32,000 bases of DNA, taken from positions 360,001 to 392,000 of the forward strand of contig NC_010655.1 in assembly GCF_000020225.1 (NCBI RefSeq), in the 5' to 3' direction. The stretch's first letter is position 1, and each line of letters begins with the position of its first letter. A model generated the notes under the pieces. It was given only the letters and a program-made list of their open reading frames with translations, was not told where the DNA came from and searched no databases. Below, piece after piece: positions 6,311 through 32,000 of this stretch. Made by a program: the position numbers and the translations under genes. The DNA is from Akkermansia muciniphila ATCC BAA-835. GTDB taxonomy: Bacteria > Verrucomicrobiota > Verrucomicrobiia > Verrucomicrobiales > Akkermansiaceae.

Positions 6311-6315
6311 AGGCT

Positions 6316-6803: not shown

Positions 6804-6828
6804 TGTCACATCAGCTTGATTTGTGACA
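6804..6828. promoter_or_regulatory. Inverted repeat TGTCACA-N11-TGTGACA in the divergent thioesterase/histidine-kinase intergenic region
   Basis: 7-bp perfect arms at 6804-6810 and 6822-6828, followed by an AT-rich tttatatatataag box upstream of the kinase start at 6881. Operator-like, but no known regulator is assigned. Confidence 0.2.
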
Positions 6829-6880
6829 TGCCGCTCTTTATATATATAAGAGCAAGCCGCACGGCAACGGACCCGCCGCC

Positions 6881-11294: not shown

Positions 11295-11301
11295 TTCCCA
11301 T

Positions 11302-13429: not shown

Positions 13430-13436
13430 TCTGTTT

Positions 13437-14746: not shown

Positions 14747-14848
14747 GCAACATGCCTATCCCGCTTTCATCCTCAGCAGGGGATGTTCCCCGCCCCGCTC
14801 AACACTTCCTTCCTCCGGGACGGGATGCGCATTGTTCCGTGCGCGAGA

Positions 14849-14877
14849 TTGACTTGTCCGCAGCCTTCGGGCAGAAT
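14849..14877 (+). promoter_or_regulatory. Candidate sigma-70-type promoter for the LptF/G-family gene
   Basis: TTGACT (14849-14854), a 17-nt spacer, then CAGAAT (14872-14877), about 20 nt upstream of the ATG at 14898. E. coli-type consensus is applied to a lineage whose promoter rules I cannot verify. Confidence 0.25.
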
Positions 14878-14897
14878 ATCCGGCACGGTTTTACTGC

Positions 14898-15989: not shown

Positions 15990-16037
15990 GCCCCCGGCGG
16001 AAGCCCTTCCCGCTGGCGTGGAATTAGCTTTCACAGC

Positions 16038-17459: not shown

Positions 17460-17477
17460 TCATCCCTCCTTCTCCGC

Positions 17478-18446
17478 ATGCTCTCCGTCAGGAACCTCAG
17501 CGCCTCCTTCCACACCAGGGCCGGCATTGTCCGGGCGGTAAGGAACGTGTCCTTTGATGTAGCCCCGGGGGAAACGCTTGGCATCGTGGGTGAATCCGGA
17601 TCAGGAAAATCCGTCACCTGCTACTCCATGATGGGGCTCATTCCGATGCCTCCGGGCCGCATTGAAAGCGGTTCCGCCATGCTGAACGGCACGGATCTGC
17701 TCCGTTGCCCGGAAAAGAAACTCCGGGCCATCCGCGGCAAACGCATCTCCATGATCTTCCAGGACCCCATGACCTCCCTCAACCCGTACCTGACCATCGG
17801 GGAGCAGGTGGCGGAACCCCTTGTCATTCACGAAGGGGCCGGCAAAAAGGAAGCGCGGGCACGCGCGCTGGAACAGCTTGCCCTGGCAGGCATACCGGAT
17901 GCGGAACAGCGCATGGACGCATATCCCCACCAATTCTCCGGCGGCATGCGCCAGCGCGTGATGATTGCCATGGCCCTCATCACCAGGCCGGAAATACTCA
18001 TCGCGGATGAACCCACCACCGCCCTTGACGTCACTGTCCAGAAGCAGGTGCTGGATCTCATCAGAAAACTTCAGCAGGACATGGGCACCTCCGTCATCCT
18101 CATCACACATGACCTCGGCGTGGTGCGCCAATACGCGGACCGCATCAATGTCATGTATGCAGGCCGCATCGTGGAAAGCGCCCCGGCGAAGGAACTTCTG
18201 GAACATCCCCGGCATGCCTACACCAGAGCCCTGATGAAATCCATTCCCGGGCTGCATGCGAAAGGCGCCCCCCTCTATACCATTCCCGGACTGCCTCCCA
18301 ACATGACTCAGGAGCCATGCGGATGCAGCTTCCGCCCCAGGAACACCCTCGGAAACCCGGCACTCTGCCTCACGGACCGGGAACCGGAGCTGGTGGAAAT
18401 ATCTCCGGGGCACTCAGTCCAGAATTGTCCGGGCTGCCTAGCTTAG
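17478..18446 (+). CDS. Oligopeptide/dipeptide-type ABC transporter ATP-binding protein (OppD/DppD-like)
   Basis: 322 aa. Walker A GESGSGKS, signature FSGGMRQRV, Walker [14 protein letters not shown]-loop ITHDL and the OppD-type C-terminal extension with Cys residues ([10 protein letters not shown] ... CPGC). No cognate permease or OppF is adjacent. Confidence 0.88.
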
Positions 18447-18888
18447 CTCCCTTTCTTTCCTGCCTGTTTGCACGCAGATAATGCCGCGCACGATTGATTG
18501 CTTCTCGCTTTCGGGAAAAGCCGGGCGGCCGTTGCGGTTACGGTTCTTCAGATTTGACTTGGCTGTTGTCTTGGGTTTCATTGGCGGTGGGGATTTGGGG
18601 TGGTTGAAAAATGGAGTGGCTGGCGATGGGCGGTACACTGGTGTACCGTTGCACCGGGTGAACTCTTCTTCAATCATACGCTTCTTTTCTTCCTTGAATG
18701 ATTTTGGCACCCACTTGTCGATGTCAAAGTCATAGTCCATATCTGGGGGAAGGAGCATCCTCCCAAGGATTGCCATCCATGGCACCTTCGGGAACAATGC
18801 TCTTGATGGCTATCTCTGCGTCTTGACGCGCTCTCATTCGGGCAATATACTCATTCGCATCAAAACTACTTGTATATCTGTCTATCAT
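18438..18888 (-). pseudogene. Hypothetical protein split by a +1 frameshift in a C5 homopolymer
   Basis: A 52-codon ORF (18888 down to 18730, MIDRYTSSFDANEYIARMRARQDAEIAIKSIVPEGAMDGNPWEDAPSP...) continues in the 119-aa ORF frame (...PDMDYDFDIDKWVPKSFKEEKKR...) if one C is removed from the minus-strand CCCCC run (ggggg at 18744-18748). No recognisable domain. The 3' end overlaps the oppD-like stop by 9 nt. Confidence 0.4.
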
Positions 18889-18943
18889 AATAATTTAAAT
18901 TGTGGTCACCGAGAAAAACTCAGCAACCGGGGTTAATGTTGAA

Positions 18944-19193
18944 CTTGATAATTTGATGAAAAGTAGTGGTAACTATATGTGAAATAGTATGTTATTTTTT
19001 CATCGGTATTTCATCAAAATTTTTCGACCAATGAAAAGAAGAAGCAACCGGGGCAAAAGAGAAGTCCAATCCTGATATTTTTCTTTTCAGTGGTTTTATC
19101 CTTGTTGAGCCGATGATGAAAGGGCGATGAAAAGAAAAACTTCTGATAACTATTCTTTTATGTTCTCATTCATCAATTCATCAAATTATCAAG
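18944..19193. repeat. 17-bp perfect inverted repeat pair enclosing iteron-like short repeats
   Basis: cttgataatttgatgaa (18944-18960) is the exact reverse complement of ttcatcaaattatcaag (19177-19193). The AT-rich interval between them holds repeated (c/g)gatgaaa(a/g)g units (18955, 19031, 19112, 19125), gcaaccgggg twice (18923, 19035) and attcatca twice (19169-19183). Confidence 0.5.
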
Positions 19194-19209
19194 AGCAACG
19201 AGAAAAAAA

Positions 19210-20443
19210 TTAAAGGTTCTCCAGCATCTGCCGGGTGACGGTGTAGAAGCGTCCGACTTTCCGACTCTCGACGTATGAGGGTTCGTTGAGAAACACGCCC
19301 ATCTGATAGGAGGTATAGCAGAGCGAGTTCGGTGCCGGATGCAATTTCCAGCATTCCTGTACCACTTTTCTCAGTGCCGTGCGGTCGGCCTTGACGCGCT
19401 GATAGTCGAAAAGGTTGAGGATATCGTTCATGCAGAACGAAACGGACTCAACATTCTTCGTCACCATTATGTCCATTAGCAGCTCGGCGAGTTCTATCTC
19501 CACACGGTTGCGGTTGGCGCGGATTACGCGCTGCAACGCCTCGGTGTCGGTAAGAGCAGGGTCGAACCACATACGGCTTTTCTCGGTGGTGGATAGAGGT
19601 CGCTCCGAAAGATGATGCAGAAATGCTGGAATCTCGGCTCTCACTTTGTCGAGAAATGCGGTGTCATCGTGTTGCAGCCGCTCAATCTTCCTGACCCAAT
19701 AGCGAGTTTCGCCGGGATCAATGACAACGGGAAGATGCTCGTTGTTGGAACACAGCACGAACTTGGCGAAGAAACTCACTTCCTCGCGGTCGCGTCCTTG
19801 CGCCTCCATCTTGTAATTGTAGGTGATTGAAAGGTTCTTCAGACGCTCGGAGTCCTCACGTTTATTCAGAAGCACCTCATCAACGACAATTACCAATTTC
19901 CCGTCCCAATCGGAATTGAACTGACTGCGGAAGCTCTCGTTGGTGTTGAAGGTCACGTTGGCCTCAAACATCGCTTTGAGAAAGTTGAGGAGCGTAGATT
20001 TCCCGGTGTTGCGTTCTTCCGATAAAGCAGCAGAATCGGGAGTTTCTGCAACGGTTTCGTATAGAGCAGTTGCAGGTAGTCAAGACCGAGTTCGTACTGA
20101 CTGACGAAGATGTGACGACAAGGGCTTCGATTGTCGGCCATTCTCCCGGCGTGGGGATATGGCTTATGGGCGCATATCGGTTGAGGAAATTGCCTACAAC
20201 GGGCTTGTAGTCTATGTGAGCCGGAACACAGCAGAAGCCATCATACTTGGGTACATTGGCGAAAAAATCTTTGCCATAGTCCTGACGGATGGCCTCAATG
20301 CTCCACGGCATACGGTATTCCACAAGTTCGCCTGTGGCGTTGGGACGCATCACAATCTTGTAGTAGGTCGTGGCGATACGCACAAAGCGGTCTTCGGGTA
20401 GGTCAGTAGATTGTGCATTGTTTTCTTTCATTGGCTCAGTCAT
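19210..20443 (-). pseudogene. Primase C-terminal/SF3-helicase-like (DUF5906/VirE-like) replication protein with at least 2 frameshifts
   Basis: Three consecutive minus-strand frames carry one protein: MTEPMKEN ... PGEWPTIEAL | RHIFVSQYELGLDYLQLLYTKPLQKLPILLL | SEERNTGKSTLLNFLKAMFEANVTFNTNESFRSQFNSDWDGKLVIVVDEV ... Walker A NTGKST is at 19993-20016 and Walker B VVDEV lies downstream. Frame changes are at about 20112-20124 and about 20018-20028. The start overlaps the excisionase stop (ATGACTGA). Confidence 0.75.
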
Positions 20444-20756
20444 TTTTAGAGTTGAGAATATCGGATACCTCACTCTGGCGATAACGGACACTGTTGTTCA
20501 CTTTGACAGGGGTGAGTTTACCGCGTTTGGTGAAATTCCAGACGGAGGTTTCTCCTATGCCGAGTTGGGCGTACACCTCTTTCTTGGTGAGCAGACGGTC
20601 TTCCTCGGCTTTCATGAGGATGGGGAGAAGACGCTCGCGAGTAGCGTCGATGGTGTCAACCACAAGCTGATGGAGGTCAGCGAGGGTGACATTGAGAACA
20701 ATGTTGGGAGAGTTGGGGTCGGAGAGAGTTGCTTGAAGAAGGGTATATAGGTTCAT
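20436..20756 (-). CDS. Helix-turn-helix DNA-binding protein, excisionase (HTH_17/MerR-like) family
   Basis: 106 aa from the ATG at 20756 (MNLYTLLQ...). LLTKKEVYAQLGIGETSVWNFTKRGKLTPVKVNNSVRYRQSEVSDIL fits the excisionase-type HTH_17 pattern. The 193-aa open frame upstream of this ATG has no recognisable content. Confidence 0.72.
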   Translation of the reverse strand: MNLYTLLQATLSDPNSPNIVLNVTLADLHQLVVDTIDATRERLLPILMKAEEDRLLTKKEVYAQLGIGETSVWNFTKRGKLTPVKVNNSVRYRQSEVSDILNSKND

Positions 20757-22106
20757 TGGCTGTATGCTTGAATCTATTGAAATGAATCGCCTGATTATCT
20801 GCACTGCCAAACCTCCGGCGACGATTGAAGGCATGGCGGTGTGTCCCGGAAAGGACATAGCTGTGGCTGTCGGCCCCTTTTTCGTTGAAATCAACACAAG
20901 GGGTGCTACCGACCCTTTTGAGGTCAGCAGACGGACGCACTGCCGATTACGGGTGCCTCTGACAACCGGGCACAACCGTGGCTGTCCGCCTTGTCGGGGC
21001 AGACTTGCGTCTTGCAATGTCGCATGGGTGCAACATACGCTGAAATGTTAAGATGGAACATCGCGCGTACCGCGCTTCATAGGATATATTCCTCTACCTG
21101 CATCTTACCATATCCTATTGTCAGTCATCGCTGCCACTAAATCCACAATTATCAGCGTGCTGACAGTCTGATATAATCATCTGCGTACCAAGGAATATCC
21201 TTTCTTTCATTGAGCCATATACAGCAGCCATTCAATCCTTTGCAAACCGTTGAGCATCGCTTCCTTAGTGCGGGTTGTTATCGGTCTGCGTCTGCCGTTA
21301 TCTTAGGCTCTCTCATAGTATTCCGGGCGGCTTCAGCCGGTCGTGTTGGTAAGTATGAACACAAAAAAGTGTAGCACAGTCAGGAGCATCATTCCAATCC
21401 GATATATAAAAGTTGAATGTGTCGGACGGTGGCTCTGCCATCTTGTGTTATATAAAGATACGAAATATTTTTCGTATTTCCAAATTTTTAGATCCCTCGA
21501 CCGAAGAAAGTGCGATTTTGCCGCATTTTCCGCATCATACGACACGGCGGCAACTGCCGACAATATGCCTTGAACCAAAGATGATAACGGTGCAATGTCG
21601 CAGGTTCGTTCCCGCACACCATATGTTTCGCTCGGCAAGCGTCGGCGCACTTTGAGCAGTGCGTGAGTCATTTGTCCTCGAAGCCGGGGACTTGGGTTAT
21701 GGTCTGCCCTTGTACGGGACTTTTTAGGCACAATCCATGCTGTTTGACCGTCACCGCAGAGCTTCGATGTATAATTCCATCCGTTGATGATGGTGTGTAA
21801 TTGCTCCGCTGGGTCGCATGATGTGCCATCACAAAATACAAAACAGAGGAATGTTTCAAAAAGTTCAGCCAATCAGAAAGATTTTTCTTTCGGCGAAAAA
21901 ATCTGATTACCGATACAGCCTGACATTTGAAACGCCCCGGAATTGCGATGCAAAGATAGTAGCGATAATCGAAGCCTCCAAATAATCAGATGCCCGGTAT
22001 CGCTTCAGGTTGTACAAGTATTGCCTAATATCGCTTTTAGCTCACCATCTCCACTGTACCGCAAAGATAATATGTCTGGATCTAAACCACCAAATTTTTA
22101 GTCCCA

Positions 22107-22289
22107 CTATCCGTGAATCTCCGTTATACTTCCGAGGTTCAGCCAAAAACTTCCGACCCATTTCCGAATACCGCTTTCTTCCGGCAATTCTAAAACGAAT
22201 ATGTCCTTCACAATATCTTGCGGAGTACGGATCACTTGTCCCTTTTCAGCCAACTCCAAAACGCCTATTTTTATACTGACTTTGAGCAA
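22107..22289 (-). pseudogene. Remnant of a DUF1016/YhcG-type PDDEXK nuclease gene (fragment)
   Basis: The 60-aa ORF contains VLELAEKGQVIRTPQDIVKDIFVLELPEES. This resembles the conserved (V)LELAEKGQ-I-x-P-x-D-x-IKDPYVLEFLGLPE linker of YhcG-family proteins as I recall it. No continuation is seen in any frame, and flanking DNA lacks intact ORFs. Confidence 0.3.
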
Positions 22290-22433
22290 GCCGCATAAAA
22301 AGGCCTGAATCTATATGTCGTCGGAGAGTTCGCCCCCCCAATGCTGTGATAAACATTCATTTTCATAGAATTGATGTTCAAGCCTATCATCCAGCTCTAA
22401 AAGCTCCCACTAATGAGACCAATATCATTAACT

Positions 22434-22472
22434 TTACTTCCAAATTTATATTCAAACTAGATCTGGAAGTAA
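22434..22472 (-). terminator. Hairpin immediately after the methyltransferase stop (possible operon terminator)
   Basis: 9-bp perfect stem ttacttcca (22434-22442) / tggaagtaa (22464-22472) with a 21-nt loop, starting 2 nt after the stop codon at 22474-22476. There is no clear U-tract. Confidence 0.3.
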
Positions 22473-22473
22473 A

Positions 22474-23769
22474 TCACTGGTAATCAATCACAATTACACT
22501 TTCTCTTAGTTTGCCGATTTTATCACTTTGCTGTGGGCTGGTTTTTAAATCCCTCGCTTTTCTTATTTCGCGAACCTTAAATCCACAAGATTCTGCTATG
22601 TCAGCAATGATATAATCAACAGGAACTTCAACTCCATAGTAAGCAGAATTAGCCACATTGAAATATATGACACCCCCTTTATGCATTTTCTTTGCAAATT
22701 CCGAGAATAAAAATTGCATATCCTCAAAATAGGCACATATCATATTTGTAATATCTGTATTCCATGTATTTAACTCTTTATTAGACATCTCTAGAAGGCT
22801 ATTCTTAAGTCTTTCATTTGCTATCGGAAAGACTTTTCCATATGGAACTTGAACATGAGAACGTAATGTGTTTTTACGTAATTCACGAAGTTCCTCATAA
22901 GAGTTAATTAATTGTAAAACTTTTAGCTCTAACATATAAATATCCGTGTAATCTCTGGAGTTTAGATAGGGTGGAGAAGTAATAATCAAATCCACTTCTC
23001 TATCTGGAACCTGTTGTATGTTTTTCCGAACATCTCCCAAATAGCATATCTCAGAATTTTGTACAGATGGATTCTGTTTGGAAATGATTCTAATATCTTC
23101 TGTAAAAATTGAATTTAATCTGTCCAGAAAAAAATTATGAATATCTTTTCTACTAAAGATTCTAGTTTCCCATCCTTTCTTGTACGACAAGCACTTGCCA
23201 TTACGAAACATATTGCTTGCTTGAATGATAATCGAAGCCAATGCGATTGTAAATAAATTCTTATAATCATCATTATCAACAATCGTTCTAATGGCATGTC
23301 TTACATCAAGTATTCCATCTATAGCAGTGTCGTGAAAATTCCACTTCTTACTCTGCTCTTTTTTTACAATCGTATCGCCAAAAGGTAATGATTCTATTTT
23401 ACGTATATTTCGACTTGTACGTGACAGCTTCTTTGTTACGGCTTTAACATAATACGTAAAGGTATCGACATTATATTTTCTACCCAATTTGACCGTTGAT
23501 AGGAGATGCATAAAAGGACTGACCTCAAAAGAATAGCACTTTATTCCGTGGTTTTGCAGTTCAACAGGAGTTGTTCCGCTACCACAGAAAGGCTCTAATG
23601 CACAGGTTGGCGCAAAAGGTAATTCGCCTAGTATGTCTTCAATAAACTCCTTAGAATATCCTTCCACAAAAGGGTACCAACGATGTACAAAAACATTCTT
23701 GTTTTTGTCAAATTGCATAACCGAATGGTATTTTTCTGTGCAATCTATGAATTTATAGTCTTTGTACAT
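22474..23769 (-). CDS. Amino-DNA methyltransferase (N4-cytosine or N6-adenine; N6_N4_Mtase-like)
   Basis: 431 aa. AdoMet motif I LEPFCGSGTT (23569-23589) is preceded by HRWYPFVEGYS. Catalytic motif IV DLIITSPPYLNSRDY has SPPY at 22966-22977, about 200 aa downstream of motif I. Confidence 0.85.
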   Translation of the reverse strand: MYKDYKFIDCTEKYHSVMQFDKNKNVFVHRWYPFVEGYSKEFIEDILGELPFAPTCALEPFCGSGTTPVELQNHGIKCYSFEVSPFMHLLSTVKLGRKYNVDTFTYYVKAVTKKLSRTSRNIRKIESLPFGDTIVKKEQSKKWNFHDTAIDGILDVRHAIRTIVDNDDYKNLFTIALASIIIQASNMFRNGKCLSYKKGWETRIFSRKDIHNFFLDRLNSIFTEDIRIISKQNPSVQNSEICYLGDVRKNIQQVPDREVDLIITSPPYLNSRDYTDIYMLELKVLQLINSYEELRELRKNTLRSHVQVPYGKVFPIANERLKNSLLEMSNKELNTWNTDITNMICAYFEDMQFLFSEFAKKMHKGGVIYFNVANSAYYGVEVPVDYIIADIAESCGFKVREIRKARDLKTSPQQSDKIGKLRESVIVIDYQ

Positions 23770-23782
23770 AGTTGTTAATTAT

Positions 23783-24898
23783 TCAGTTGGGATGTTCATT
23801 TATTACTCTAAAATCATCTAATTTAATGTGTCTGTAATAAGCTGGTCTATCTTTCTTAGGTATTTGATCGATGGTCATGTCTATTCCTGTGTCAGGAAGT
23901 TCTTCGTCTCTAGCATCAAATACTGCTAAATACCCCAACTTGAAATCTTTTTCCTCGGCCAACAATTCTGTTATGTAAGAGGTTGATTGTTTAAATGCAT
24001 CAGGGACAATACGCGGTTTGGCACTATATGTGGTTCCTATTTTCTTGCCTAAATGATGAACACTAGTACCTACCCACTTGACTTCTATAAAATACAATCC
24101 CTCGCCATCTTCATCAATCATAGCAATATCCAATCTCTTCAAACTTTCTAACATGACCTCTTTCTGCACGAAGAAAACTTTTAATTTTTCCTTTAAGAAC
24201 ATACGTAAATCATCCCTAAAACAATCTTCTGGAGTATTTCTGAGTAATTGCTTATTGGCTTTGATAAACTGTTCTTCATTAAGTTCTGATTTCAAATCGG
24301 TTCGTAAAGATTTTAAATGACTTTTCTCAACAAAGAATTTAGAATAGGTATCTCTGAGTTTTAAGTGTTTTCTATATTCCTCAAGTACTCTCGGCAATTC
24401 TGAAATAGGCTTTTTACTATTGAATGAGTGTAAGGCCGAGCTTTCATAAAAAATGGAATCACCACCGTCGCGGCCGTTAACAAAATAATTAATAATGCCT
24501 TCTGAAGTCACCATAAATACAACGATACCATTCTTTGACATTTGTGTGAAAATACGTCTAGTTTCGTTGTTATCTTTGTGCAATTCGTTATCAAATTCTT
24601 GAATATTAAAATTAGAATCAATGACAATGTGGCGATTCTGAACAAACGTTGGGTCTGTAAACAACTGTTCAATAGCACTATCTGCATTATTTGTAAGATT
24701 CTGTAAGTCTTCTTCTGATATGACAATATACTTAAAACTATTGTCTGGGTGTTTATCGCACATTGTTTTTATGAGCGACTGCATAAGCTTGAAATTGTCA
24801 GTAGCTTCCAATCCATTCAATGCCGCGTCCACTATAGCTTCTTGATTACGTTTTAGCAAATCTTTAAAGTTTGCATTTTGGCTGAATCTTGTTTTCAT
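23783..24898 (-). CDS. Protein with a C-terminal PD-(D/E)xK (restriction-endonuclease-fold) nuclease motif and an unknown N-terminal domain
   Basis: 371 aa. ...PEDCFRDDLRMFLKE ... LKRLDIAMIDEDGEGLYFIEVKWVG ... QSTSYI gives the E ... D ... E-x-K ... Q layout of PD-(D/E)xK nucleases. D codons are at 24113-24130 and EVK at 24077-24085. The first ~230 aa show no motif I recognise. Confidence 0.6.
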   Translation of the reverse strand: MKTRFSQNANFKDLLKRNQEAIVDAALNGLEATDNFKLMQSLIKTMCDKHPDNSFKYIVISEEDLQNLTNNADSAIEQLFTDPTFVQNRHIVIDSNFNIQEFDNELHKDNNETRRIFTQMSKNGIVVFMVTSEGIINYFVNGRDGGDSIFYESSALHSFNSKKPISELPRVLEEYRKHLKLRDTYSKFFVEKSHLKSLRTDLKSELNEEQFIKANKQLLRNTPEDCFRDDLRMFLKEKLKVFFVQKEVMLESLKRLDIAMIDEDGEGLYFIEVKWVGTSVHHLGKKIGTTYSAKPRIVPDAFKQSTSYITELLAEEKDFKLGYLAVFDARDEELPDTGIDMTIDQIPKKDRPAYYRHIKLDDFRVINEHPN

Positions 24899-24904
24899 AA
24901 CCTG

Positions 24905-25492
24905 CTACTTTATAATTTCGCTAAAAACATACTCAAAATATAACTCTATGTATTTTTCATCGCTGATAGCTGATGCGTCGTCAAGAGTTTGTTCAAAAGC
25001 GATTTTGAAATCTTTGAGGACTTTTAGTGTTTCGCTATCTGGTGATGATGTATCTATGCCATCAATATTGTTAGTTTGAGATGCGTTTTCATAAGATGGG
25101 TCATTAACGATGAAACCAAATAATCGTTTTTCGCCGTATTTGCCTAACATATACATAATAGTTTTCAGCCATTCAACTTTTTCTTGATTCAAAGGAATCT
25201 CCTTCTTAGAACATAAAACCAATCCACCCTCCTCTTCACGTAATTTTAAAGAACTTCTTAGGAAAACTAAACTCCGTTCAATCAAATCTGAATATGGACC
25301 GAAAGTTGTTACTGTAAAATGGTAATATGAAAATATATTTTCTCCTTCATGCTTGAATGAATAGAGAACTTGTACCAAATACAATATTCTTTGGAAAGAT
25401 TGTTCTGAAACCGCCCCCCAACCCATACTTTTGGCTATGGTTGAGACTGTTACAATATCTTCATTTGCTCTTATCAAATTCTTTTCTAGCAT
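24905..25492 (-). CDS. Small helical protein (candidate 'middle component'/adaptor; weak DUF4065/Panacea-like N-terminal pattern)
   Basis: 195 aa. The start overlaps the ATPase stop (ATGCTAG, 25486-25492). FQRILYLVQVLYSF ... FTVTTFGPYSDLIERSLVFL resembles the LQKLLYxAQ ... W-x-GP-(V/Y)-S pattern of DUF4065-type proteins. No catalytic motif. Acidic, low-complexity C-terminal third. Confidence 0.55.
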   Translation of the reverse strand: MLEKNLIRANEDIVTVSTIAKSMGWGAVSEQSFQRILYLVQVLYSFKHEGENIFSYYHFTVTTFGPYSDLIERSLVFLRSSLKLREEEGGLVLCSKKEIPLNQEKVEWLKTIMYMLGKYGEKRLFGFIVNDPSYENASQTNNIDGIDTSSPDSETLKVLKDFKIAFEQTLDDASAISDEKYIELYFEYVFSEIIK

Positions 25493-27501
25493 AATTCCAA
25501 TCTGTTTTTAATATGATGATAGATTGATTTTAATTGCTCACTTGTGTTCTGTATAGTAGATTGTTTTGCAATATCCAATAACCCAACAATACCAAGATCA
25601 ACATTTTCCTGATCCAATAAATGCTCAATAAATAAACTATTGTTCAGGTTTGATGTTATGATTAATGAGTTGGGCTTCTTTAGGAATTCAGCAAAAACGC
25701 TTGCAGCATTCCTTTCGTATGATATATCCAAACTACTGTCCGGTGTCTCAACTATATAAAAAGACGGAGTCCTATAGAAGAATGTAAGAATACTCATTCT
25801 AAAAGAATGATCCACAAAGAATCTTTGTGATTCTGACATTTCTTCTTCGTAAAACCGGACTTTCCCATCAATAACAGGATAAAAACGCTTGTTTGTATCT
25901 CCAGTTTGTTTGATGTATGTCAGCTCGCAAGGTACACCTAAAAACTTTCCTGCGTATTGGGCAAAAATCGAGGAAAACGCATGAACATTAGCTGTTATAA
26001 CATCTTCTATTTCGTTTGAAATAGAAGTCACGATATTATACTGCTCGTCACGTTGTTTTTGGTATGCCTCTTTTTGTTGGGTCAGACGATTTACTTCATC
26101 TAGGAATGGTTGAATGGAATTTTGACTATTATCAGACATAGCATTTTCATACTCCAGTTCCCTGATTTGTTGCTGAATCGTTCTTCTTTCCAATTCAATC
26201 TTAGTAAACTCTGTATCTGAGTTAATGATTTGTTGCTCTATATTTTGTATTGTCTGCTTCTTGGTATTAATAGACTGATATAATGTTTTTCTATGTGTGC
26301 TTATCTCATCAAAACGTTTTCTTAATATTGTATCCGTTTCTGTGTTTTCATTAATTGAAGAGCCACAAGCAAAACAACTATTTGAGTCATTTGCAACTTT
26401 TTCAACCAATTCATCATTTGGCTGATTGCACATCGGACAGATGTGGTTCAGCTGAATGTTCTTTATGAAAACATGATATGAAGGATGTAGAGTCTCCCAT
26501 ATATGGTTATTTAGTTGCTCCTCTATTTGTTTTAACTGTTTATCCATATCATTTGCAGATAAACTTATTTTGTTGATTTCATTCTGCAATAGTGATATGT
26601 CTTGACTTTTAGAAGCACGTTCTTTTTGTATGGATGCCAGTTTGGCGTCCATTCCTGCAAGCTTTCCCTTTAAATCAATAAGAATAAGTGCAGTGTTCCC
26701 TTGATTAGCTGTTGAGTGGTCGGCTGACGGAGAAGTATCCTTCATTTTGCCAAGAACCTTATTAATAGCTCTCATGTCTTCTGAACTATGACGAGACAAA
26801 CTATCAAAATATTTAGCTTTTCTAATAGCTTCTTGCCGTTTCTTGTCGAGAACAGGGTCATTGAAATATTTGTTAAATAGTTCGCTTTGTACATCAGGGA
26901 AGAAGCCACCATCATTCCAAAGGATGGTCTTGTGGTCTTCTCCGAAAAAAAGTACCTCGTTTACGAAAAATATTAAATCATCAAATTCTAAATTTGTATT
27001 AGTCTTAATGATTTTCTCATATAGATAAGGCAACATATTAACTTTTGCAGCATCAGATAATTTTTCGTAGCTAAACTGATTGATTAAGGTGCCAAATACT
27101 TCTGTTCCATCAACCTTAAGTTTGGTTAAGGTTATGGAGGATAAATCTCTTGTCAAATCAACTGTAACATTGTTTATCTTCATGCTAATTGATACGGTAG
27201 GAGAAGCATCCGTGTGAATGCTGTCATCCATGCGATTGCTGAAATACTTTTGCGGAAACAGTTGGCGTTTTTCTATAATATTTCCTTGGTATGTACGAGT
27301 ATATCCGAAAGGCTTTTTGTATAACCCAAGAATTGCATATCGAATAATGTTGACAAAAGTAGTTTTCCCCATGCCATTACCACCTAGCACAAGATTGACG
27401 CCTTTAACAAAATCAAAGGTGTAATCCAAACCGTTGGGGTATAAAGTATAATTCTTAATATTTATACTCAATAGCTCTGGCAGATAAATGTGTCTACTCA
27501 T
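25486..27501 (-). CDS. SMC/Rad50/RecN-like ABC ATPase with a coiled-coil insert containing a 4-Cys zinc ribbon
   Basis: 671 aa. Walker A VLGGNGMGKTTF (about 27355-27390). About 350 aa of Q/E/K/I-rich heptad-like helix. CPMC-x17-CFAC at 26365-26439. Signature-like MSESQR at 25825-25839. Walker B/D-loop FYIVETPDSSLD at 25723-25765. Confidence 0.85.
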   Translation of the reverse strand: MSRHIYLPELLSINIKNYTLYPNGLDYTFDFVKGVNLVLGGNGMGKTTFVNIIRYAILGLYKKPFGYTRTYQGNIIEKRQLFPQKYFSNRMDDSIHTDASPTVSISMKINNVTVDLTRDLSSITLTKLKVDGTEVFGTLINQFSYEKLSDAAKVNMLPYLYEKIIKTNTNLEFDDLIFFVNEVLFFGEDHKTILWNDGGFFPDVQSELFNKYFNDPVLDKKRQEAIRKAKYFDSLSRHSSEDMRAINKVLGKMKDTSPSADHSTANQGNTALILIDLKGKLAGMDAKLASIQKERASKSQDISLLQNEINKISLSANDMDKQLKQIEEQLNNHIWETLHPSYHVFIKNIQLNHICPMCNQPNDELVEKVANDSNSCFACGSSINENTETDTILRKRFDEISTHRKTLYQSINTKKQTIQNIEQQIINSDTEFTKIELERRTIQQQIRELEYENAMSDNSQNSIQPFLDEVNRLTQQKEAYQKQRDEQYNIVTSISNEIEDVITANVHAFSSIFAQYAGKFLGVPCELTYIKQTGDTNKRFYPVIDGKVRFYEEEMSESQRFFVDHSFRMSILTFFYRTPSFYIVETPDSSLDISYERNAASVFAEFLKKPNSLIITSNLNNSLFIEHLLDQENVDLGIVGLLDIAKQSTIQNTSEQLKSIYHHIKNRLELC

Positions 27502-27553
27502 AATACTTTCTTTAAAAAGATCGGCTATATATACAACAGATCCAATATAATTA

Positions 27554-27561
27554 CAAAAATA
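27554..27561 (-). promoter_or_regulatory. Bacteroidota-type -7 promoter box (TAnnTTTG) upstream of the ATPase operon
   Basis: The minus strand reads TATTTTTG, 53 nt upstream of the ATG at 27501, inside a 114-nt AT-rich gap. The expected -33 TTTG is not clearly present (ACTTTA only). Confidence 0.3.
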
Positions 27562-27615
27562 CTTTTTTCTTCAATTATAAAGTTGTAGCACGGTATTATT
27601 AAAAACTTTTGTTCT

Positions 27616-28983
27616 TTATATAATATCCTCCGTTTTTTTTGCTCCACGATATTCTATCAAGCCTAGACTGATTAGATTCTTCAATGTGCGAGACAACGTA
27701 GGGACACAGACTTCTATCATTGTAGACAACTCATTGGTCCTTAGACCAGGAGTTTTAGATAAAATCAGAAGAACTTGTTTCTCTCGTGAATTTATCCTAT
27801 CATTTAATCTATCATTTAGTTTATCATCGGTGGTTCTTAGGGACTTGGTTCGCTTCATAAAAGTAACGGTAAAGAAGCCCTTGTTGTCAAATTCGGGTTC
27901 AGGCAGACCAGCTTCTTTCATAAGGCGGCGCATACGGGGAATGCCGGAGCCTACTTTCTCAACAAGCTGCATTCTTGTGAATAGTCCGAAAATAAGTGGA
28001 TTCCGGCTCATACTCTTTTCTCCGAAGTTTTCTGCAACAATGGGAAGAAGACCTCCGGGATTGGAAATCTCAACCCGGTCATCATATACTTCAACCATCA
28101 CTGTCGCACCCTCTTCATACAGGTCGCGATGACAGATGGCGTTCATAACCGACTCCTTGAAAACATCCAGCGGTATCTCCCATATTTCTTTTCGTGGCCC
28201 CGTACCTTCGATGATGTACTCTACTTCAAGTTTGCTCTCAATCCACGAGAGAGTATTGAGATACTGCTGATATAGTGGTCCTCCAAAAGTCTTGTCATCT
28301 ATGATGTGGACCTTGTCAAAACCTTTGAATCTCAAACATCTTACGACAGCATGAGCAAACTTCCTCTCCGGCTCTTTGCCGAAGAAAAGAGCAGCGGCAT
28401 TCTTCACTCGTCCATCATCGGTTGTTAGTTCCAGGTTGTCGAATAATTGTCGAATCGGTAAATCTTCAGATAGGTGAGATTTTTCAAGAAAGGAACGGAA
28501 ATTATGGCTGTCTATGTCCTCGTCAATGCCAAACCATTTGCATGGAATGGCATCATAAAATATCTTTGAACATTCGGCAAAGAAAGCCCGTATTTCTTCA
28601 GCCGTTCTCAACTTTTGGCAGTTGGCACCCTCTCTTACATATATCACGCCTCCGGCGATGTAAGGTTTGTCCTTACCGCTTGGCACATCAACAACCCATA
28701 TCTTCTTACCATCAACATCCATCGGATAAAAGACGCAATGCAGGGCAGGAGAAATTTCACCGATGGTGTCTTGGATTGCTGAACGCTTATTATTGTCTAT
28801 CTCGGCGCCTATAATCTTGTTGTCATCACTAACACCAATGAGAACATAACCTCCGGCGGCATTAGCAAAACCAGCCACTTCCTCGAATAGTTCTCTTACT
28901 TTTGAAGGCACACTGCGTTTGAAGTCCACATTGTAGCCTTCGCCTCCTTTTACAAGGTCAAGTATTTGAGATGCCGTTAACAT
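27616..28983 (-). CDS. AlbA_2 (Schlafen-like 'divergent AAA') + HATPase_c_4-like + C-terminal winged-helix DNA-binding protein
   Basis: 455 aa. The N-terminus GGEGYNVDFKRSVPSKVRELFEEVAGFANAAGGYVLIGVSDDNKIIG is the AlbA_2 signature. The middle ESVMNAICHRDLYEEGATVMVEVYDDRVEISNPGG is HATPase_c_4-like. The C-terminus REKQVLLILSKTPGLRTNELSTMIEVCVPTLSRTLKNLISLGLIEYRG is a MarR/ArsR-like wHTH. This family is often mis-annotated as RecG-like. Confidence 0.8.
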   Translation of the reverse strand: MLTASQILDLVKGGEGYNVDFKRSVPSKVRELFEEVAGFANAAGGYVLIGVSDDNKIIGAEIDNNKRSAIQDTIGEISPALHCVFYPMDVDGKKIWVVDVPSGKDKPYIAGGVIYVREGANCQKLRTAEEIRAFFAECSKIFYDAIPCKWFGIDEDIDSHNFRSFLEKSHLSEDLPIRQLFDNLELTTDDGRVKNAAALFFGKEPERKFAHAVVRCLRFKGFDKVHIIDDKTFGGPLYQQYLNTLSWIESKLEVEYIIEGTGPRKEIWEIPLDVFKESVMNAICHRDLYEEGATVMVEVYDDRVEISNPGGLLPIVAENFGEKSMSRNPLIFGLFTRMQLVEKVGSGIPRMRRLMKEAGLPEPEFDNKGFFTVTFMKRTKSLRTTDDKLNDRLNDRINSREKQVLLILSKTPGLRTNELSTMIEVCVPTLSRTLKNLISLGLIEYRGAKKTEDII

Positions 28984-28987
28984 AATG

Positions 28988-28995
28988 CAAAATTA
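28988..28995 (-). promoter_or_regulatory. Second TAnnTTTG-type box just upstream of the AlbA_2 gene
   Basis: The minus strand reads TAATTTTG, ending 4 nt before the ATG at 28983. That is too close for a normal leader, so it is either a leaderless-type start or coincidence. Confidence 0.15.
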
Positions 28996-29035
28996 CGAAA
29001 TTATTTTGAAATGACATAATGATAAGGGCTGTGTG

Positions 29036-30250
29036 TCACCACATCTCACACTCTTTCTTCGACATTGCGGCGATTTCATCGGCTATCTCTTCGGAGGAGA
29101 GTTTGATGTAGTCCATGAAGGTCTTTTGGGTTTTGTGGCCGCTGACGTGCATCATCTGGAGCATCGTGTATTTGTGGGAGAGGTACATATTGGTGATTCC
29201 TGTTCTTCGGGCGGTATACGAAGTTACACAAGCATAACGCGGAACAATAACGTTGCCGTTGAGGTCGGTCTCAGCTTCCTTGCCTTCTTTTTTCAGTGCC
29301 TCCTTCTGCTTCATAGTCAATCGGGTCGGCACTTTCTCAGCAAGGGTCGGCATAATTTCCGACAAATCTTTGAGAATGTTCTTGATGTAGCGGTTCAACA
29401 CCTGCTCGTTGACTTTCGGCACATTGTAGCCGTATTTCTCGCAGATGGCTATTAGATTCTCATTAAGAACCGGAATTGTCACCTCGGTCTTGGTCTTTTG
29501 CTGGACTATACGGATGATGCGTGTGCCTTTGCGTGTAGTCTCAAAGCAGTCGGCATGAGATTGTTGTAGTCACTGACACGTTGGCAAGTATAGCAACCGA
29601 TGAGAAAAACATCGCGTATAAGGTCGTTCTTACCGGTCAGCGGCATTTCATAGAGAACTTGCAGTTCATCTTCCGTCAGATAGATTTCGACAGCCTTGTC
29701 GCGGTCTTCAATCTTGTTCTTCACAATCAGCGAAGCGGCACGTTGGTTGTGTCATGCACACCATCAATGAAAGCGGCGTTTATCAAAGCTTTCAGGTTGG
29801 TCAGATGCTTGTTGACAACCTTCTCCATATAGCCGTTCGCGCCTTTTCTCTCGCCTCTTCACGCTTGGTAATCGCCTTCCGCTCGGCTGCGGCTGCTTCC
29901 TCTTTTGCCCTGCGCTCTGCATCCACCTTTTCAGACTCGGATATGTAGCGCACATCCATGTCGAGAGCCTCACGATCGAAATCAATTTTCGCCATGTGAG
30001 CCTTTACGATGCCTTCAATCTGCGTTAGCTTGGCATGAAGTTGGTAATTCTTCTTCTGATGCGCCAGCCACGCACGTGGCGAAGCGGTGGCTTTCAGCCA
30101 TTCGTTCACCTCCACTTGGAGCAATGTCGAAATAAGCACATCAATCTTTCGGGTATGGATGCGGATAAACAGAGTCGCGGTATCCTTTTTCAAGTCCTTG
30201 TTGCGAACATGAAACGGTGTCAATTTTTTCGGAGAGGGTGTTGTTGCCAT
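29036..30250 (-). pseudogene. Tyrosine recombinase/integrase (Bacteroidota-type with Arm-binding N-terminus) with at least 3 frameshifts
   Basis: Fragments in successive frames: MATTPSPKKLTPFHVRNKDLKKDTATLFIRIH ... EKA | NGYMEKVVNKHLTNLKALINAAFIDGVHD | NQRAASLIVKNKIEDRDKAVEIYLTEDE ... CQRVSDYNNL | ADCFETTRKGTRIIRIVQQKTKTEVTIPV ... TSYTARRTGITNMY ... HVSGHKTQKTFMDYIK. The catalytic R, the R in ARRT, H and Y are all recognisable. Frame changes are at about 29835-29850, about 29745-29752 and about 29550-29558. Confidence 0.85.
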
Positions 30251-30354
30251 ATATTTGTTTGTCGTTAAATTTGAATGTCGGCTTTCACAGTTGTTCCCTG
30301 TCAGCCACTTTGGTTCTGCAAATATAACAACTCAAACTGCCATTTGTCAAATCG

Positions 30355-30376
30355 GGTCACCACGCAGGTCACCACG
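30355..30376. repeat. Tandem direct repeat GGTCACCACG-ca-GGTCACCACG upstream of the integrase
   Basis: Exact 10-nt copies at 30355-30364 and 30367-30376, about 105 nt upstream of the integrase ATG (30250), followed by a T6 run. A related tggtcaccg occurs at 18903-18911 near the other end of the island. Confidence 0.6.
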
Positions 30377-30523
30377 TTTTTTGAATGACGGTGAAATTCC
30401 AAAATTCAGTCGAAATTTATATTGCGTTATTATTCAGTATTTTGCATCCAGTTCAAATTCATCTTGATTCACCTCAATTCACAAACTCAAGTTCTGTTGG
30501 AACCACGCCACGGAAAAATCCTT

Positions 30524-31159
30524 TTAACAGAATTGATTTCCGCACAATTCTTCCAGAATACCGTAAAAACGGCCCACATGCACCCCGTCCACCAGCACAT
30601 GGTTTGCCTGAATGGCCACGGGCATCACCATCCTGCCGGAAGCATCCGCCTCCATCTTCCCCCAATGGATGAGGGGAAAGTATTGTCCCCGAAACACTCT
30701 GTAGGCGCTGGCCACCTGTGTGAATGGAATCCACGGCAGGCAGCTGAATACGGCGATATCCGCCCTATGGCACGGATTCGCCTGGGCGGGAGCAAGTTTG
30801 GCAGCCTGCACAAGAGGAACGGCATGTTTCAGGAAATCAGACAACTCCATCCGGTATTCCACTAAAATCTGAGTGAATTCTCCATCCGCAGCCAGCACTG
30901 GAACCAGGGCATCCACGGACTCATACTCCCATACATCCCCTTCCTCCACCCGCTGGCGCAGCTGGGGCACCCTGTTCAACGCCTTCAGCAGCACAAACAG
31001 GCACAAAATGAAAAAGGAAACCCCCTCCCGTTTCGCATAACGGTACAGGGCATCCACCCGGACCGGGGACGTAATGGAAAACATGGGGCAGTCAAACGTC
31101 TGGAAATACTCATAATGAGACTTTCGAGGCCAGGAAGAGATTTCTATTTTCTTTTTCAT
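30524..31159 (-). CDS. cat: Chloramphenicol O-acetyltransferase-family (type A CAT-like) protein
   Basis: 211 aa. WPRKSHYEYF N-terminus, SCLPWIPFT, and the catalytic-His region AIQANHVLVDGVHVGRF (the H-x-x-x-D-G pattern of CAT). High GC like the core genome. Substrate not verifiable. Confidence 0.8.
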   Translation of the reverse strand: MKKKIEISSWPRKSHYEYFQTFDCPMFSITSPVRVDALYRYAKREGVSFFILCLFVLLKALNRVPQLRQRVEEGDVWEYESVDALVPVLAADGEFTQILVEYRMELSDFLKHAVPLVQAAKLAPAQANPCHRADIAVFSCLPWIPFTQVASAYRVFRGQYFPLIHWGKMEADASGRMVMPVAIQANHVLVDGVHVGRFYGILEELCGNQFC

Positions 31160-31335
31160 GCACTTATTTTCTATTCAGGGAAGGCTCCCCGTTTCACAAC
31201 AGCTTCTTTCCTTCCATTATTCCCCGGCTCTACCGGAAATTCCAACCCGGCTGTTCCCAGCGCCAAAGCATTGATTAATGCTTCTATTTATTCAATTATC
31301 AACTATGTTGCAACAAAGAACATCCTGAATGCCCC

Positions 31336-32000
31336 CTACCCCTCGCGAACGGAAAGCAAATCCGTTACGGACGCATGCTTCATGCGCCACGCAGGCAGAA
31401 GGCACGCCAAGGATGAGAGGGAAAGCACCAAAAGCACAGCACAGGCCAGATGCGCCCAAGGCATCGTGACAGGAGGAGTAACGACGCCGAAGTGATAGCC
31501 GTATTCCAAAATCTGGATGGAGCACCAGGCGCCCAGGACTCCCAGCACAAGACTCATGACAACGGAGCACAGGGAAACCATCAGCGTTTCCGCCCAGAGC
31601 ATCCGCATCACCATGCCGCCCGGCACGCCCACCGCACGCATCAATCCAAACTCCCGGCGGCGGGACTGCACGGAAGCCAGGACGGTGTTAAGTACGGCCA
31701 GAACGGCGATCACCATCATGATGATGGGAAGCTTGCTCATCGTAAAAATCACATCGTCCCCGCGGCTGGTAACGCTTCCTCCCAGGCTTTCCCGGGTCAG
31801 GGCCTTCACCAGAGGCTTGGCGCCTTCCCCTCCGTTTTCCTGCTCCCGCACCTTCATCAGGGCGTATTCCCCCAGGTCGTTCTGAAGTTCCACGTTGCTG
31901 ATCCCCGGAGCAGTATCCCCCCAGATAAACTGGAATCCCTGATGAGCGTATTCCTCTTTGAGCCAGCGTTCATCGGCAATCGCCAAAGCGGCAACAAAAC
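31336..32000 (-). CDS. ABC transporter permease, FtsX/MacB/LolE-like (C-terminal part; 5' end beyond the window)
   Basis: The C-terminal four-TM FtsX domain has RRREFGLMRAVGVPGGMVMRMLWAETLMVSL. The frame is open to the window edge, so the gene is partial. Confidence 0.8.
   Translation of the reverse strand, partial: FVAALAIADERWLKEEYAHQGFQFIWGDTAPGISNVELQNDLGEYALMKVREQENGGEGAKPLVKALTRESLGGSVTSRGDDVIFTMSKLPIIMMVIAVLAVLNTVLASVQSRRREFGLMRAVGVPGGMVMRMLWAETLMVSLCSVVMSLVLGVLGAWCSIQILEYGYHFGVVTPPVTMPWAHLACAVLLVLSLSSLACLLPAWRMKHASVTDLLSVREG

Follow-up and report, generated by a model that had tools for sequence, protein, structure and literature searches.

A window of 32,000 nucleotides from the chromosome of Akkermansia muciniphila ATCC BAA-835 (contig NC_010655.1, positions 360,001 to 392,000; coordinates below are those of the window) carries a 12-kb island between two core genes. 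We conclude, with a probability that we put at roughly 85%, that this island is the immobilised remnant of an integrative and mobilizable element (IME) that belongs to a Bacteroidales family (Muribaculaceae, Bacteroides, Alistipes) and was acquired by inter-phylum transfer. The decay of the remnant, the tRNA-Phe target of the family and the empty site are new with respect to a first-pass annotation of this region, made from the sequence alone. Comparison loci and proteins are designated by L and P numbers, respectively.

Insertion site and distribution of the island

The island lies between the stop codons of two convergent core genes:

17478-18446, plus strand: OppD-like ATP-binding cassette (ABC) ATPase, core flank (Pfam ABC_tran and oligo_HPY); its stop codon is 45 bp before the insert.
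18492-30508 (12,017 bp), all genes on the minus strand: inserted island, delimited by alignment with empty-site contigs.
30524-31159, minus strand: CAT-family acetyltransferase, core flank (Pfam CAT); its stop codon is 15 bp from the insert.

The first-pass annotation had placed the island at 18447-30523. An island does lie there, but these limits are those of the flanking stop codons, and the true insert spans 18492-30508. Its edges are given by contigs L098-L101 and L110, which match the window to 18491 and again from 30509. In these contigs, the CAT and OppD stop codons are 48-49 bp apart. Alignment with relatives lacking the island thus reveals a clean empty site, seen in two sister A. muciniphila lineages, and the region is not universal among relatives. 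All host bases were kept at the insertion, and a 3-bp GTG is common to both junctions. The CAT/oppD spacer of Akkermansia reads TTTTCCTGTGCGCAGC. Empty sites were located through CAT homologues and look-ups of the exact proteins. The CAT variants P0231 and P0219 (94% amino-acid (aa) identity) are found on contigs whose flanks are 94-98% identical to the window at the nucleotide (nt) level. Among the matches listed, OppD homologues in the genome collection have at most 70% identity and show no synteny.

The exact OppD-like and CAT proteins are encoded by finished A. muciniphila genomes of ~2.664 Mb (CP024740, CP174100, CP071807, CP042830 and CP024738). We also collected the longest contigs encoding either exact protein. 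The island, with identical gene fragmentation, is present on 24/24 of those selected for OppD and 22/22 of those selected for CAT. Because all of these contigs share both the island and its fragmentation, the island is fixed in the type-strain-like A. muciniphila lineage and is no assembly artefact. A Bacteroidales contig joined to Akkermansia by faulty assembly or binning would also produce a sharp compositional break and closest relatives in another phylum. However, the same junctions occur in the five finished isolate genomes and in many metagenome assemblies, which leaves such a chimera a negligible probability.

Island-bearing and empty-site strains (L098, L110) are 97.9-98.0% identical on the OppD side (window 1-18491) and 93.7-95.7% on the CAT side (30509-32000). 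This difference suggests a recombination breakpoint or differing histories of the two flanks.

In distant Akkermansia species, whose flanks are 86-90% identical at the nt level, the spacer holds an unrelated gene of ~190 aa, resembling 23S_rRNA_IVP, and a heptamer tandem repeat. The gene ends in this repeat (~GGTGACAGG, translated GDRGDRGD) in L111 (10556-11338), L112-L114 and L095, and contigs of these species break off or are gapped at the repeat behind the CAT gene. The CAT/OppD spacer seems to be a recurrent insertion spot.

The occurrence of extra DNA between CAT and OppD in distant species, together with the presence of the island in every contig that encodes an exact flank protein, could be taken to mean that the ancestor of Akkermansia already had the region and that other lineages lost it by precise deletion, without inter-phylum transfer. 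However, the extra DNA of the distant species is unrelated and has no blastn match to the island. In addition, the left junction falls inside mobA, a gene of the element, rather than at an attachment (att) site, which makes it implausible that deletions should have restored the 48-bp spacer exactly on two occasions. Base composition and tetranucleotide usage are Bacteroidales-like, and the backbone is 73-85% identical at the nt level to Bacteroidales elements. We therefore give an ancestral origin hardly any credence.

Composition of the island

In 500-nt windows, GC content drops from 0.56-0.62 to 0.38-0.45 within 500 bases past ~18500. A plateau of 0.32-0.36 extends from ~22250 to 27750; values then climb to 0.43-0.50 and, past 30500, are back at 0.52-0.59. 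Core GC is 0.560 on the left and 0.545 on the right, and that of the whole insert is 0.409. By segment:

18492-20756: left backbone, GC 0.483.
20757-22473: non-coding stretch, GC 0.459.
22474-27501: four-gene cassette, GC 0.342.
27502-29035: segment of the SLFN-type gene, GC 0.412.
29036-30508: integrase region, GC 0.465.

The GC profile, the segment values and the empty site all confirm the abrupt change first read as a foreign island between core genes. The core itself measures ~56% GC, not the 52-53% of the hand counts. The mosaic described as three-tiered is indeed tiered, but it has four tiers, the SLFN-like gene (0.41-0.43) being intermediate between the backbone (0.47-0.48) and the cassette. 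Codon usage and k-mers also set the island apart from the core. GC at third codon positions is 0.58-0.74 in core genes versus 0.29-0.32 in the four cassette genes. Tetranucleotide usage of the island segments correlates at -0.11 to 0.28 with the Akkermansia core, versus 0.64-0.76 with a chromosomal flank from Bacteroides acidifaciens.

The Bacteroidota -7 consensus TAnnTTTG had been cited as a sign of origin. Seventeen of its 18 matches in the window do lie inside the island, but 16.4 are expected for the window, so that enrichment was rejected as being at chance level. The relevant boxes are those defined by position. One is found upstream of the integrase gene (int), in a block conserved with L093 and L094, and is a candidate promoter. 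The other is located 53 nt upstream of the cassette ATPase gene.

30319-30326, minus strand: TATATTTG box, ~70 nt upstream of the int start.

No tRNA was found within the window, and no Rfam family matches the island.

A Bacteroidales IME family that targets tRNA-Phe

The family is defined here from L093, L122, L128-L134, L141 and L153-L156, and a metagenome scan with the L093 relaxase gave 76 loci. Taken together, the 76 loci give the order int, a first cargo slot, ~1 kb of non-coding DNA, an HTH_17 gene, the DUF5906 gene rep, a DUF3408 gene, mobA, a relaxase gene, a second cargo slot (~4 kb), a conserved terminal arm and tRNA-Phe. The Akkermansia copy is collinear with this order down to codon 32-33 of mobA. 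L093 contains int, Abi_2 cargo, HTH_17, DUF5906 (409 aa), DUF3408, a NikA-like MobA and a PF03432 relaxase, and it matches the window at 73-85% nt identity in four collinear blocks. The DNA homology of the window to L141, L153 and L156 takes in the SLFN-type gene.

The intact integrases closest to the reconstructed int are 487 aa long, contain PF13102 and show 83-91% aa identity to it. Named members of their clusters come from Bacteroides acidifaciens, Muribaculum, Muribaculaceae, Paramuribaculum and uncultured Bacteroides. The best hits of the backbone are thus Bacteroidales clusters, outside the phylum of the host, in keeping with the transfer among gut bacteria proposed earlier. Exact flanking proteins assign L093 to Candidatus Homeothermus (Muribaculaceae; FeoB), L094 to B. 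acidifaciens, L129 to Muribaculaceae and L155 to Alistipes. P0122 (GLV05726.1, Amuc02_14340), from another A. muciniphila isolate, is an apparently intact integrase of 461 aa in the same 90% cluster as the Bacteroidales protein P0003; it is encoded on a 179-kb contig, and its context is not on record. It hints that the IME family entered Akkermansia more than once.

The terminal arm ends in tRNA-Phe(GAA), as identified by ARAGORN in L129, L134 and L155. A 13-bp core, GTGGTGCCACCAG, forms the 3' end of tRNA-Phe and is repeated at the int-proximal end, which reads AAGTGGTGCCACCAGAAC in L094, L128, L129, L134 and L153. This att core was obtained from loci that reach the tRNA. Around L093, no direct repeat of 11 bp or more was found, and a shared 7-mer, GGTGGCG, was dismissed as chance. 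L117 (P0004), considered as a second complete element, was rejected as well, with other cargo and no backbone within 10 kb.

A second integrase, 45-54% identical in aa sequence to that of L093, occurs a few kb past the relaxase in L141, L153, L126, L145-L147, L149, L157, L169 and L171. It follows a truncated far arm in L141 and L153 and stands directly after the arm in many loci. These second integrases look like tandem IME arrays accreted at tRNA-Phe in Bacteroidales.

In intact members, the integrase would insert the element at the 3' end of tRNA-Phe(GAA) and thereby duplicate GTGGTGCCACCAG. The HTH_17 excisionase-like protein and the DUF5906 primase-helicase would act on the excised circle. 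The NikA-like MobA and the relaxase would then act at an origin of transfer (oriT), leading to transfer by a co-resident conjugative element. Variable, mostly low-GC genes of the defence type occupy the two cargo slots, the first of which follows int and the second the relaxase gene.

An integrase, an HTH_17 protein and a DUF5906 primase-helicase also make up a replication module common in prophages and phage satellites. In addition, the SLFN-type protein of the island matches a PHROG at 7e-71 and has a 57%-identical copy on an IMG/VR contig. A prophage or satellite remnant is nonetheless very improbable. The intact relatives have a NikA-like MobA, a PF03432 relaxase and DUF3408, whereas neither the window nor L093 contains capsid, terminase or tail genes, and no match to a structural PHROG was obtained.

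Decay of the mobility genes in Akkermansia

The remnants of the IME backbone, from int to the left junction, are:

29039-30250, minus strand: tyrosine integrase pseudogene (487 aa when intact; tblastn with the L093 int).
20804-21866, minus strand: conserved non-coding backbone region upstream of HTH_17, with collinear patches matching L093.
20439-20756, minus strand: HTH_17 excisionase-like gene, intact, 106 aa (Pfam HTH_17 1.8e-6; PHROG excisionase 8e-9).
19213-20431, minus strand: DUF5906 primase-helicase-like Rep pseudogene (409 aa when intact; Pfam DUF5906 2.5e-14; NTGKST present).
18662-18888, minus strand: probable DUF3408 N-terminal remnant, frameshifted and mostly deleted, between rep and mobA as in L093.
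18632-18647: 16-bp near-palindrome GGTACACTGGTGTACC, candidate oriT inverted repeat upstream of mobA.
18492-18581, minus strand: 5' remnant of mobA (NikA-like relaxosome protein; tblastn), ~30 codons, fused to host DNA.

The integrase survives as four fragments that are 83-92% identical in aa sequence to that of L093: residues 1-138 in frame -2, 222-250 in frame -1, 251-314 in frame -3 and 315-487 in frame -2 (tblastn). This amounts to three frame changes in total (tblastn and six-frame translation). The 83 codons for residues 139-221 are deleted, and ~250 bp are missing relative to L093. In addition, the catalytic His of the HxxR motif is changed to Tyr (SYTARRT in the window versus SHTARRT in L093). 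Two frameshifts split rep, with residues 1-106 in frame -2, 95-155 in frame -1 and 139-409 in frame -3 (tblastn with the L093 rep). On the other hand, the HTH_17 protein is 72% identical in aa sequence to its L093 counterpart over its full length. Hence, the backbone features listed by the first-pass annotation, namely the integrase N-terminus with KKDTATLFIRIH, HTH_17 and the NTGKST motif, are all present, but the integrase and DUF5906 genes are pseudogenes.

Of MobA, only residues 1-32/33 remain (84% identity to L156, 70% to L093; tblastn), and blastn homology to mobA of L153 and L156 reaches window position 18493. The DUF3408 remnant resembles the N-terminus of the L093 protein by eye only, with no tblastn match at E<0.01. 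A chimeric open reading frame of 119 aa (18438-18797, minus strand) begins in the DUF3408/mobA remnant, crosses the junction and ends in host DNA with a 9-base overlap at the oppD stop; it is annotated in public records as a gene of 100-112 aa. No relaxase was found in the window by tblastn, and the far, tRNA-proximal arm with the second att end is absent from it.

The 16-bp palindrome or near-palindrome (GGTACACNGGTGTACC) is kept ~60 bp upstream of mobA in L093 (at 16495), L122, L128, L129, L134 (at 9548), L153 and L156. It is perfect in four of these seven loci. If it is an oriT, a Bacteroidales relaxase acting in trans might nick the Akkermansia chromosome there.

Within the non-coding region, a 137-bp patch (21349-21485) is ~95% identical in L151, L153, L154, L156 and L173, and 72-76% in seven others. 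The genes around it are only ~73-80% identical to the window at the nt level in the five ~95% members. The patch contains a conserved inverted repeat, CATC(G/A)TTC...GAA(C/T)GTG, with one compensatory change, and a promoter-like TTTG...TATCTTTAT on the gene strand; its folding z on the plus strand of the window is -5.35. It could be an operator, a promoter or an origin for Rep. A structured RNA was rejected, with no Rfam match and an alignment that backs one hairpin or inverted repeat through a single compensatory change.

The copy is predicted to be immobile as an element: it is without a working recombinase, Rep or relaxase and has one att end left. That it could still excise and be mobilised from Akkermansia is an idea to which the intact HTH_17 gene, the oriT-like palindrome and the int-proximal copy of the att core lend themselves. 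It has very little chance of being right in view of the three frame changes, the 83-codon deletion and the His-to-Tyr substitution in the integrase, the two frameshifts in rep, the cut of mobA at codon 32-33, and the lack of a relaxase and a second att end. Moreover, the lesions are identical in all genomes examined. Sequencing errors are also an unlikely source of the lesions, which recur unchanged in several complete genomes obtained independently.

Junctions and reconstructed history

The two junctions and the empty site, all in the CAT to OppD orientation, and the remaining att core copy are:

Empty site: ...GGATTTTCCTGTGCGCAGCATTATC...
Right junction: ...GGATTTTTCCGTG / GCGTGGTTCCAACAGAAC...
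Left junction: ...GAGAAGCAATCAATC / GTGCGCGGCATTATC...
30494-30506, minus strand: degenerate att core copy GTGGTTCCAACAG, matching 11/13 of GTGGTGCCACCAG; family homology starts exactly there.

Because the degenerate core lies where family homology begins, the right junction is the genuine int-proximal end of the element. The left junction is of another kind and falls inside mobA: family members encode Q-S-(Y/I)-(V/I)-R-H-T, and the window encodes Q-S-I-V-R before host sequence begins. The V-R codons GTGCGC of mobA coincide with a host GTGCGC.

From these features, the following history can be proposed for the IME remnant. An IME carrying an SLFN/AlbA_2-type gene and the four-gene cassette in its first slot would have entered an ancestor of A. 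muciniphila. The 48-bp CAT/oppD spacer would have provided a secondary, non-tRNA site for its integration, which its own integrase probably carried out. A deletion between the GTGCGC of mobA and that of the junction, mediated by microhomology, would then have removed the 3' end of mobA, the relaxase gene, the second cargo slot and the far arm, leaving host DNA untouched. The mobility genes left behind would have decayed, but the cargo would have escaped damage and become fixed in the type-strain-like lineage.

Thus the Akkermansia copy departs from the tRNA-Phe rule of its family, with its insertion in the CAT/oppD spacer and a degenerate int-proximal core only. The earlier finding of no tRNA target and no long flanking repeat stands for the window. 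This absence is explained if the insertion was non-canonical and later truncated. On the other hand, the family does have a target, tRNA-Phe, and the site, first described as unclear, is defined to the base.

Intact cargo

The cargo consists of the SLFN-type gene and the four cassette genes:

27616-28983, minus strand: SLFN_AlbA_2 and HATPase_c_4 protein with a C-terminal winged helix-turn-helix, intact, 455 aa (Pfam 6e-21 and 8e-26).
25486-27501, minus strand: cassette gene 1, SMC/Rad50-like ABC ATPase, 671 aa (Pfam AAA_23 3e-10; Rad50 P-loop matches in the PDB).
24905-25492, minus strand: cassette gene 2, helical protein of 195 aa with a winged-helix-like core (AlphaFold2 mean confidence, pLDDT, 87).
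23783-24898, minus strand: cassette gene 3, protein of 371 aa with an N-terminal alpha/beta domain and a C-terminal PD-(D/E)xK nuclease-like domain (no Pfam family).
22474-23769, minus strand: cassette gene 4, DNA methyltransferase, 431 aa (PADLOC MTase_II 4e-55 over the full length; Pfam N6_N4_Mtase 2.5e-8).

Orthologues of the SLFN-type protein (82-84% aa identity) are encoded directly after int in L141 and L156, and in L141 the gene is followed by others of 32-33% GC. Because these loci show the same layout of int, SLFN-type gene and low-GC cargo, the tiered GC is a property of the IME family in its native hosts. A search for the origin of the SLFN-type gene in plasmids and IMG/VR returned only matches of at most 57% identity.

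The cassette is found elsewhere, with the same four genes in the same order, beside unrelated integrases. On a Bacteroidaceae-like contig, the copy is 87% identical at the nt level, and its neighbour is a 407-aa integrase of the Bacteroides/Parabacteroides type. The copy in Millionella massiliensis is 81% identical and has a 422-aa integrase next to it. In both cases, homology runs from the ATG of the ATPase gene to within a few bases of the methyltransferase stop, and GC is 33-35% whatever the host flank. Because the cassette is a self-contained module, and because intact members of the family share the int, SLFN and low-GC cargo layout, the mosaic probably predates entry into Akkermansia. 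This bears out the suggestion that the element had acquired its cargo earlier, from a source of lower GC.

The ratio of nonsynonymous to synonymous substitution rates (dN/dS) of the four cassette genes is 0.035-0.10, including 0.04-0.08 for the ATPase and 0.05-0.06 for the methyltransferase; it is 0.04 for the SLFN-type gene compared with L156. In total, there are at least 7 frame-breaking lesions in ~3 kb of backbone coding sequence versus 0 in 6.4 kb of cargo coding sequence, a split that has, by our own arithmetic, a probability of ~4e-4 under uniform decay. Because the split is so improbable under uniform decay, it argues that the cargo may have been kept by selection in Akkermansia while mobility was lost.

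Several points weigh against this account of the island as a decayed Bacteroidales IME with retained defence cargo. One member of the integrase clusters, GLV05726.1, is itself annotated as A. muciniphila. The two-step scenario, in which the integrase acts first and a microhomology deletion follows, is reconstructed. Similarity between the Akkermansia target and the canonical att site is weak (TTTTnC..GTG), GTG is all that the two junctions have in common, which could be at chance level, and an extra GC/GTGGC ahead of the core at the right junction is unexplained. We found no Bacteroidales contig with the exact composite of int, the SLFN-type gene, this cassette and HTH_17, and capture of the cassette before the transfer is argued from parsimony. 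Because the nearest cassette copy is at a dS of 0.5-1.1, the actual donor is unsampled. Finally, the 371-aa and 195-aa proteins have no match among defence models.

Predicted function of the cassette

The ATPase matches the Lamassu subunit LmuB in PADLOC over nearly its full length (5e-18 and 7e-18, scored without a curated cut-off), mad3 at 9e-11, and generic SMC/Rad50 models too. Around residues 354-383 (~26350-26440), a four-Cys motif, CPMC...CFAC, is located in the middle of the coiled coil and is reminiscent of a Rad50 zinc hook or a zinc ribbon. The 195-aa family is rare (66 clusters at 50% identity among 1.84 billion representatives). A fold search with the 195-aa protein gave no significant match, and SocA_Panacea was matched only at E 0.018. 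Its identification as a Panacea antitoxin, LmuC or kleisin was rejected, with 1-2 weak matches and no fold match.

The 371-aa protein has 120 homologues of ~370 aa, the distant ones being named from Flavobacterium, Kordia, Flavobacteriales and Xenorhabdus. Residues E247, D257, E272, K274, Q304, D328 and R330 are invariant in 65 homologues. Its AlphaFold2 model (pLDDT 90.8) gives weak Foldseek matches to PspGI, EndoMS, McrC and MunI. For the N-terminal domain (residues ~50-180), the best PDB matches are diadenylate cyclases (CdaM, CdaA, DisA) at E 4e-4, an odd resemblance for a restriction-type protein; a template modelling score of ~0.44 is too weak to call it such an enzyme. The methyltransferase has FxGxG near residue 60 and SPPY near residue 266, that is, the S-adenosylmethionine-binding and catalytic (S/D)PPY motifs expected in a methyltransferase of Type II restriction-modification.

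We tentatively favour, at somewhat less than even odds, a restriction-modification-like system that depends on ATP. This prediction is preferred because the methyltransferase is invariable, equally constrained and of the Type II kind, and because its partner has an invariant PD-(D/E)xK motif. The methyltransferase would mark self DNA. On incoming DNA that is unmodified, the PD-(D/E)xK protein would be loaded or activated by the SMC/Rad50-like ATPase, acting together with its 195-aa partner. The island would act now as a chromosomal defence island, in which the cassette probably forms a barrier to phages or foreign DNA.

An abortive-infection system like Lamassu is the main competing mechanism. 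The signal sensed by the ATPase would then be phage DNA (ends or intermediates of replication), and the response would be release of the PD-(D/E)xK effector on host and phage DNA; the methyltransferase would be an add-on, perhaps with an anti-restriction or regulatory role. LmuB provides the best defence-model matches of the ATPase, the small middle gene and the nuclease-type effector mirror the roles of LmuC and LmuA, and the four cysteines halfway along the coiled coil are similar to a hook of the SMC/Rad50 kind. However, neither the 371-aa nor the 195-aa protein matches LmuA or LmuC at E values up to 10. Described Lamassu operons place the effector gene lmuA first, whereas the cassette has the ATPase first and the nuclease third. 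The methyltransferase is present in every cassette copy seen and is equally constrained, which fits an obligatory self-marking partner; to our knowledge, a DNA methyltransferase is not part of Lamassu as described. We consider a Lamassu-like mechanism unlikely.

Whatever its mechanism, the cassette is possibly an undescribed, self-contained, methylation-linked defence system that moves as a unit between unrelated integrase-borne Bacteroidota islands, a view that we hold slightly more loosely than the restriction-modification prediction. A literature search found no paper describing the island or the cassette. Methylation at RAATTY (m6A) and AACN6TAC has been reported for a probiotic strain of A. 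muciniphila (PMC11741434). The cassette methyltransferase is a candidate for one of these two motifs.

Significance

The window matches the type-strain-like lineage of A. muciniphila, one of the leading next-generation probiotics. The island offers a base-resolved case of transfer from Bacteroidota to Verrucomicrobiota in which donor-type relatives, the tRNA-Phe target, the empty site and the path of decay are visible. It shows the usual fate of such transfers, in which mobility genes die and defence cargo is kept. If the cassette is the defence system proposed above, it would be the selected payload that keeps a dead Bacteroidales element in the commonest human A. muciniphila lineage, and it would probably hinder both phages and the genetic manipulation of the species. 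The intact methyltransferase/ATPase/nuclease set is a candidate restriction barrier that bears on phage susceptibility and on transformation of this species, which is hard to engineer and for which pre-methylated DNA or loss of the cassette might be of use. The 371-aa and 195-aa families and the cassette are uncharacterised and easy to test. In addition, further Bacteroidales defence genes may usefully be sought in the IME family, given its two cargo slots and its tandem arrays at tRNA-Phe.

Comparison with known systems

NBU1, NBU2 and Tn4555 are Bacteroides IMEs mobilised by CTnDOT-like conjugative transposons. Elements of this type have an excision helper, a primase-like gene and one or more Mob proteins with an adjacent oriT; they depend on a conjugative helper and can be mobilised across a wide range of taxa. 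Like them, the family described here has a tyrosine integrase at one end, targets a tRNA 3' end, duplicates a short core and encodes a small excisionase-like protein, a primase-like protein and Mob proteins next to a candidate oriT; it would likewise depend on a conjugative helper. It differs in the use of tRNA-Phe(GAA) with core GTGGTGCCACCAG, a 487-aa PF13102 integrase, a DUF5906 Rep, DUF3408, a NikA-like MobA with a PF03432 relaxase, and defence-type cargo in two slots. The window copy differs further: it is truncated and pseudogenised, its host belongs to a different phylum, and its insertion site is not a tRNA gene. As in other mobile elements domesticated as defence islands, its mobility genes are degraded, and its defence cargo is intact and fixed. 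Unlike the usual cases, donor and recipient belong to different phyla, and the site, the empty site and the intact relatives are shown.

The cassette is built like the core of Lamassu (LmuA/LmuB/LmuC; DdmABC), where a small accessory protein and a nuclease-type effector accompany an SMC/Rad50-like ATPase that has a long coiled coil. It differs by the methyltransferase as an invariant fourth gene and by gene order. Among restriction-modification systems, CglI and NgoAVII are ATP-dependent Type II variants that combine a methyltransferase, a nuclease and a separate ATPase subunit. The cassette resembles Type II systems in its full-length match to a REBASE-derived Type II methyltransferase, the adjacent PD-(D/E)xK protein and a separate NTPase subunit. 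In contrast to CglI and NgoAVII, its ATPase is of the ABC type (SMC/Rad50-like) rather than superfamily 2 helicase-like, its putative nuclease is a PD-(D/E)xK protein with an N-terminal alpha/beta domain rather than a phospholipase D (PLD) nuclease, and it has an extra fourth subunit of 195 aa.

Two further systems link methylation to defence. MADS, the methylation-associated defence system, comprises eight genes, of which MAD6, MAD7 and MAD8 are mandatory in the authors' model (10.1101/2023.03.30.534895). The cassette shows weak matches of its ATPase to mad3 and of its methyltransferase to mad2; MAD6-8 are absent from its four genes, the sole mad8 match being to the P-loop at E 0.0026. MANTIS/Gao_RL is a four-gene operon encoding a DUF499 AAA+ protein, a DUF3870 protein, an N6A methyltransferase and a PLD-helicase (10.64898/2026.09.23.753747). 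Pfam searches with the cassette proteins gave none of DUF499, DUF3870 or PLD-helicase, which are parts of MANTIS / BREX-related type 2. Overall, MADS and MANTIS share the logic of the cassette: self-marking by a methyltransferase is combined with one or more ATPases, a nuclease effector and a small co-factor. Mobile elements are known to decay into defence islands, and transfer between phyla in the gut is known as well; it is the cassette that may be new.

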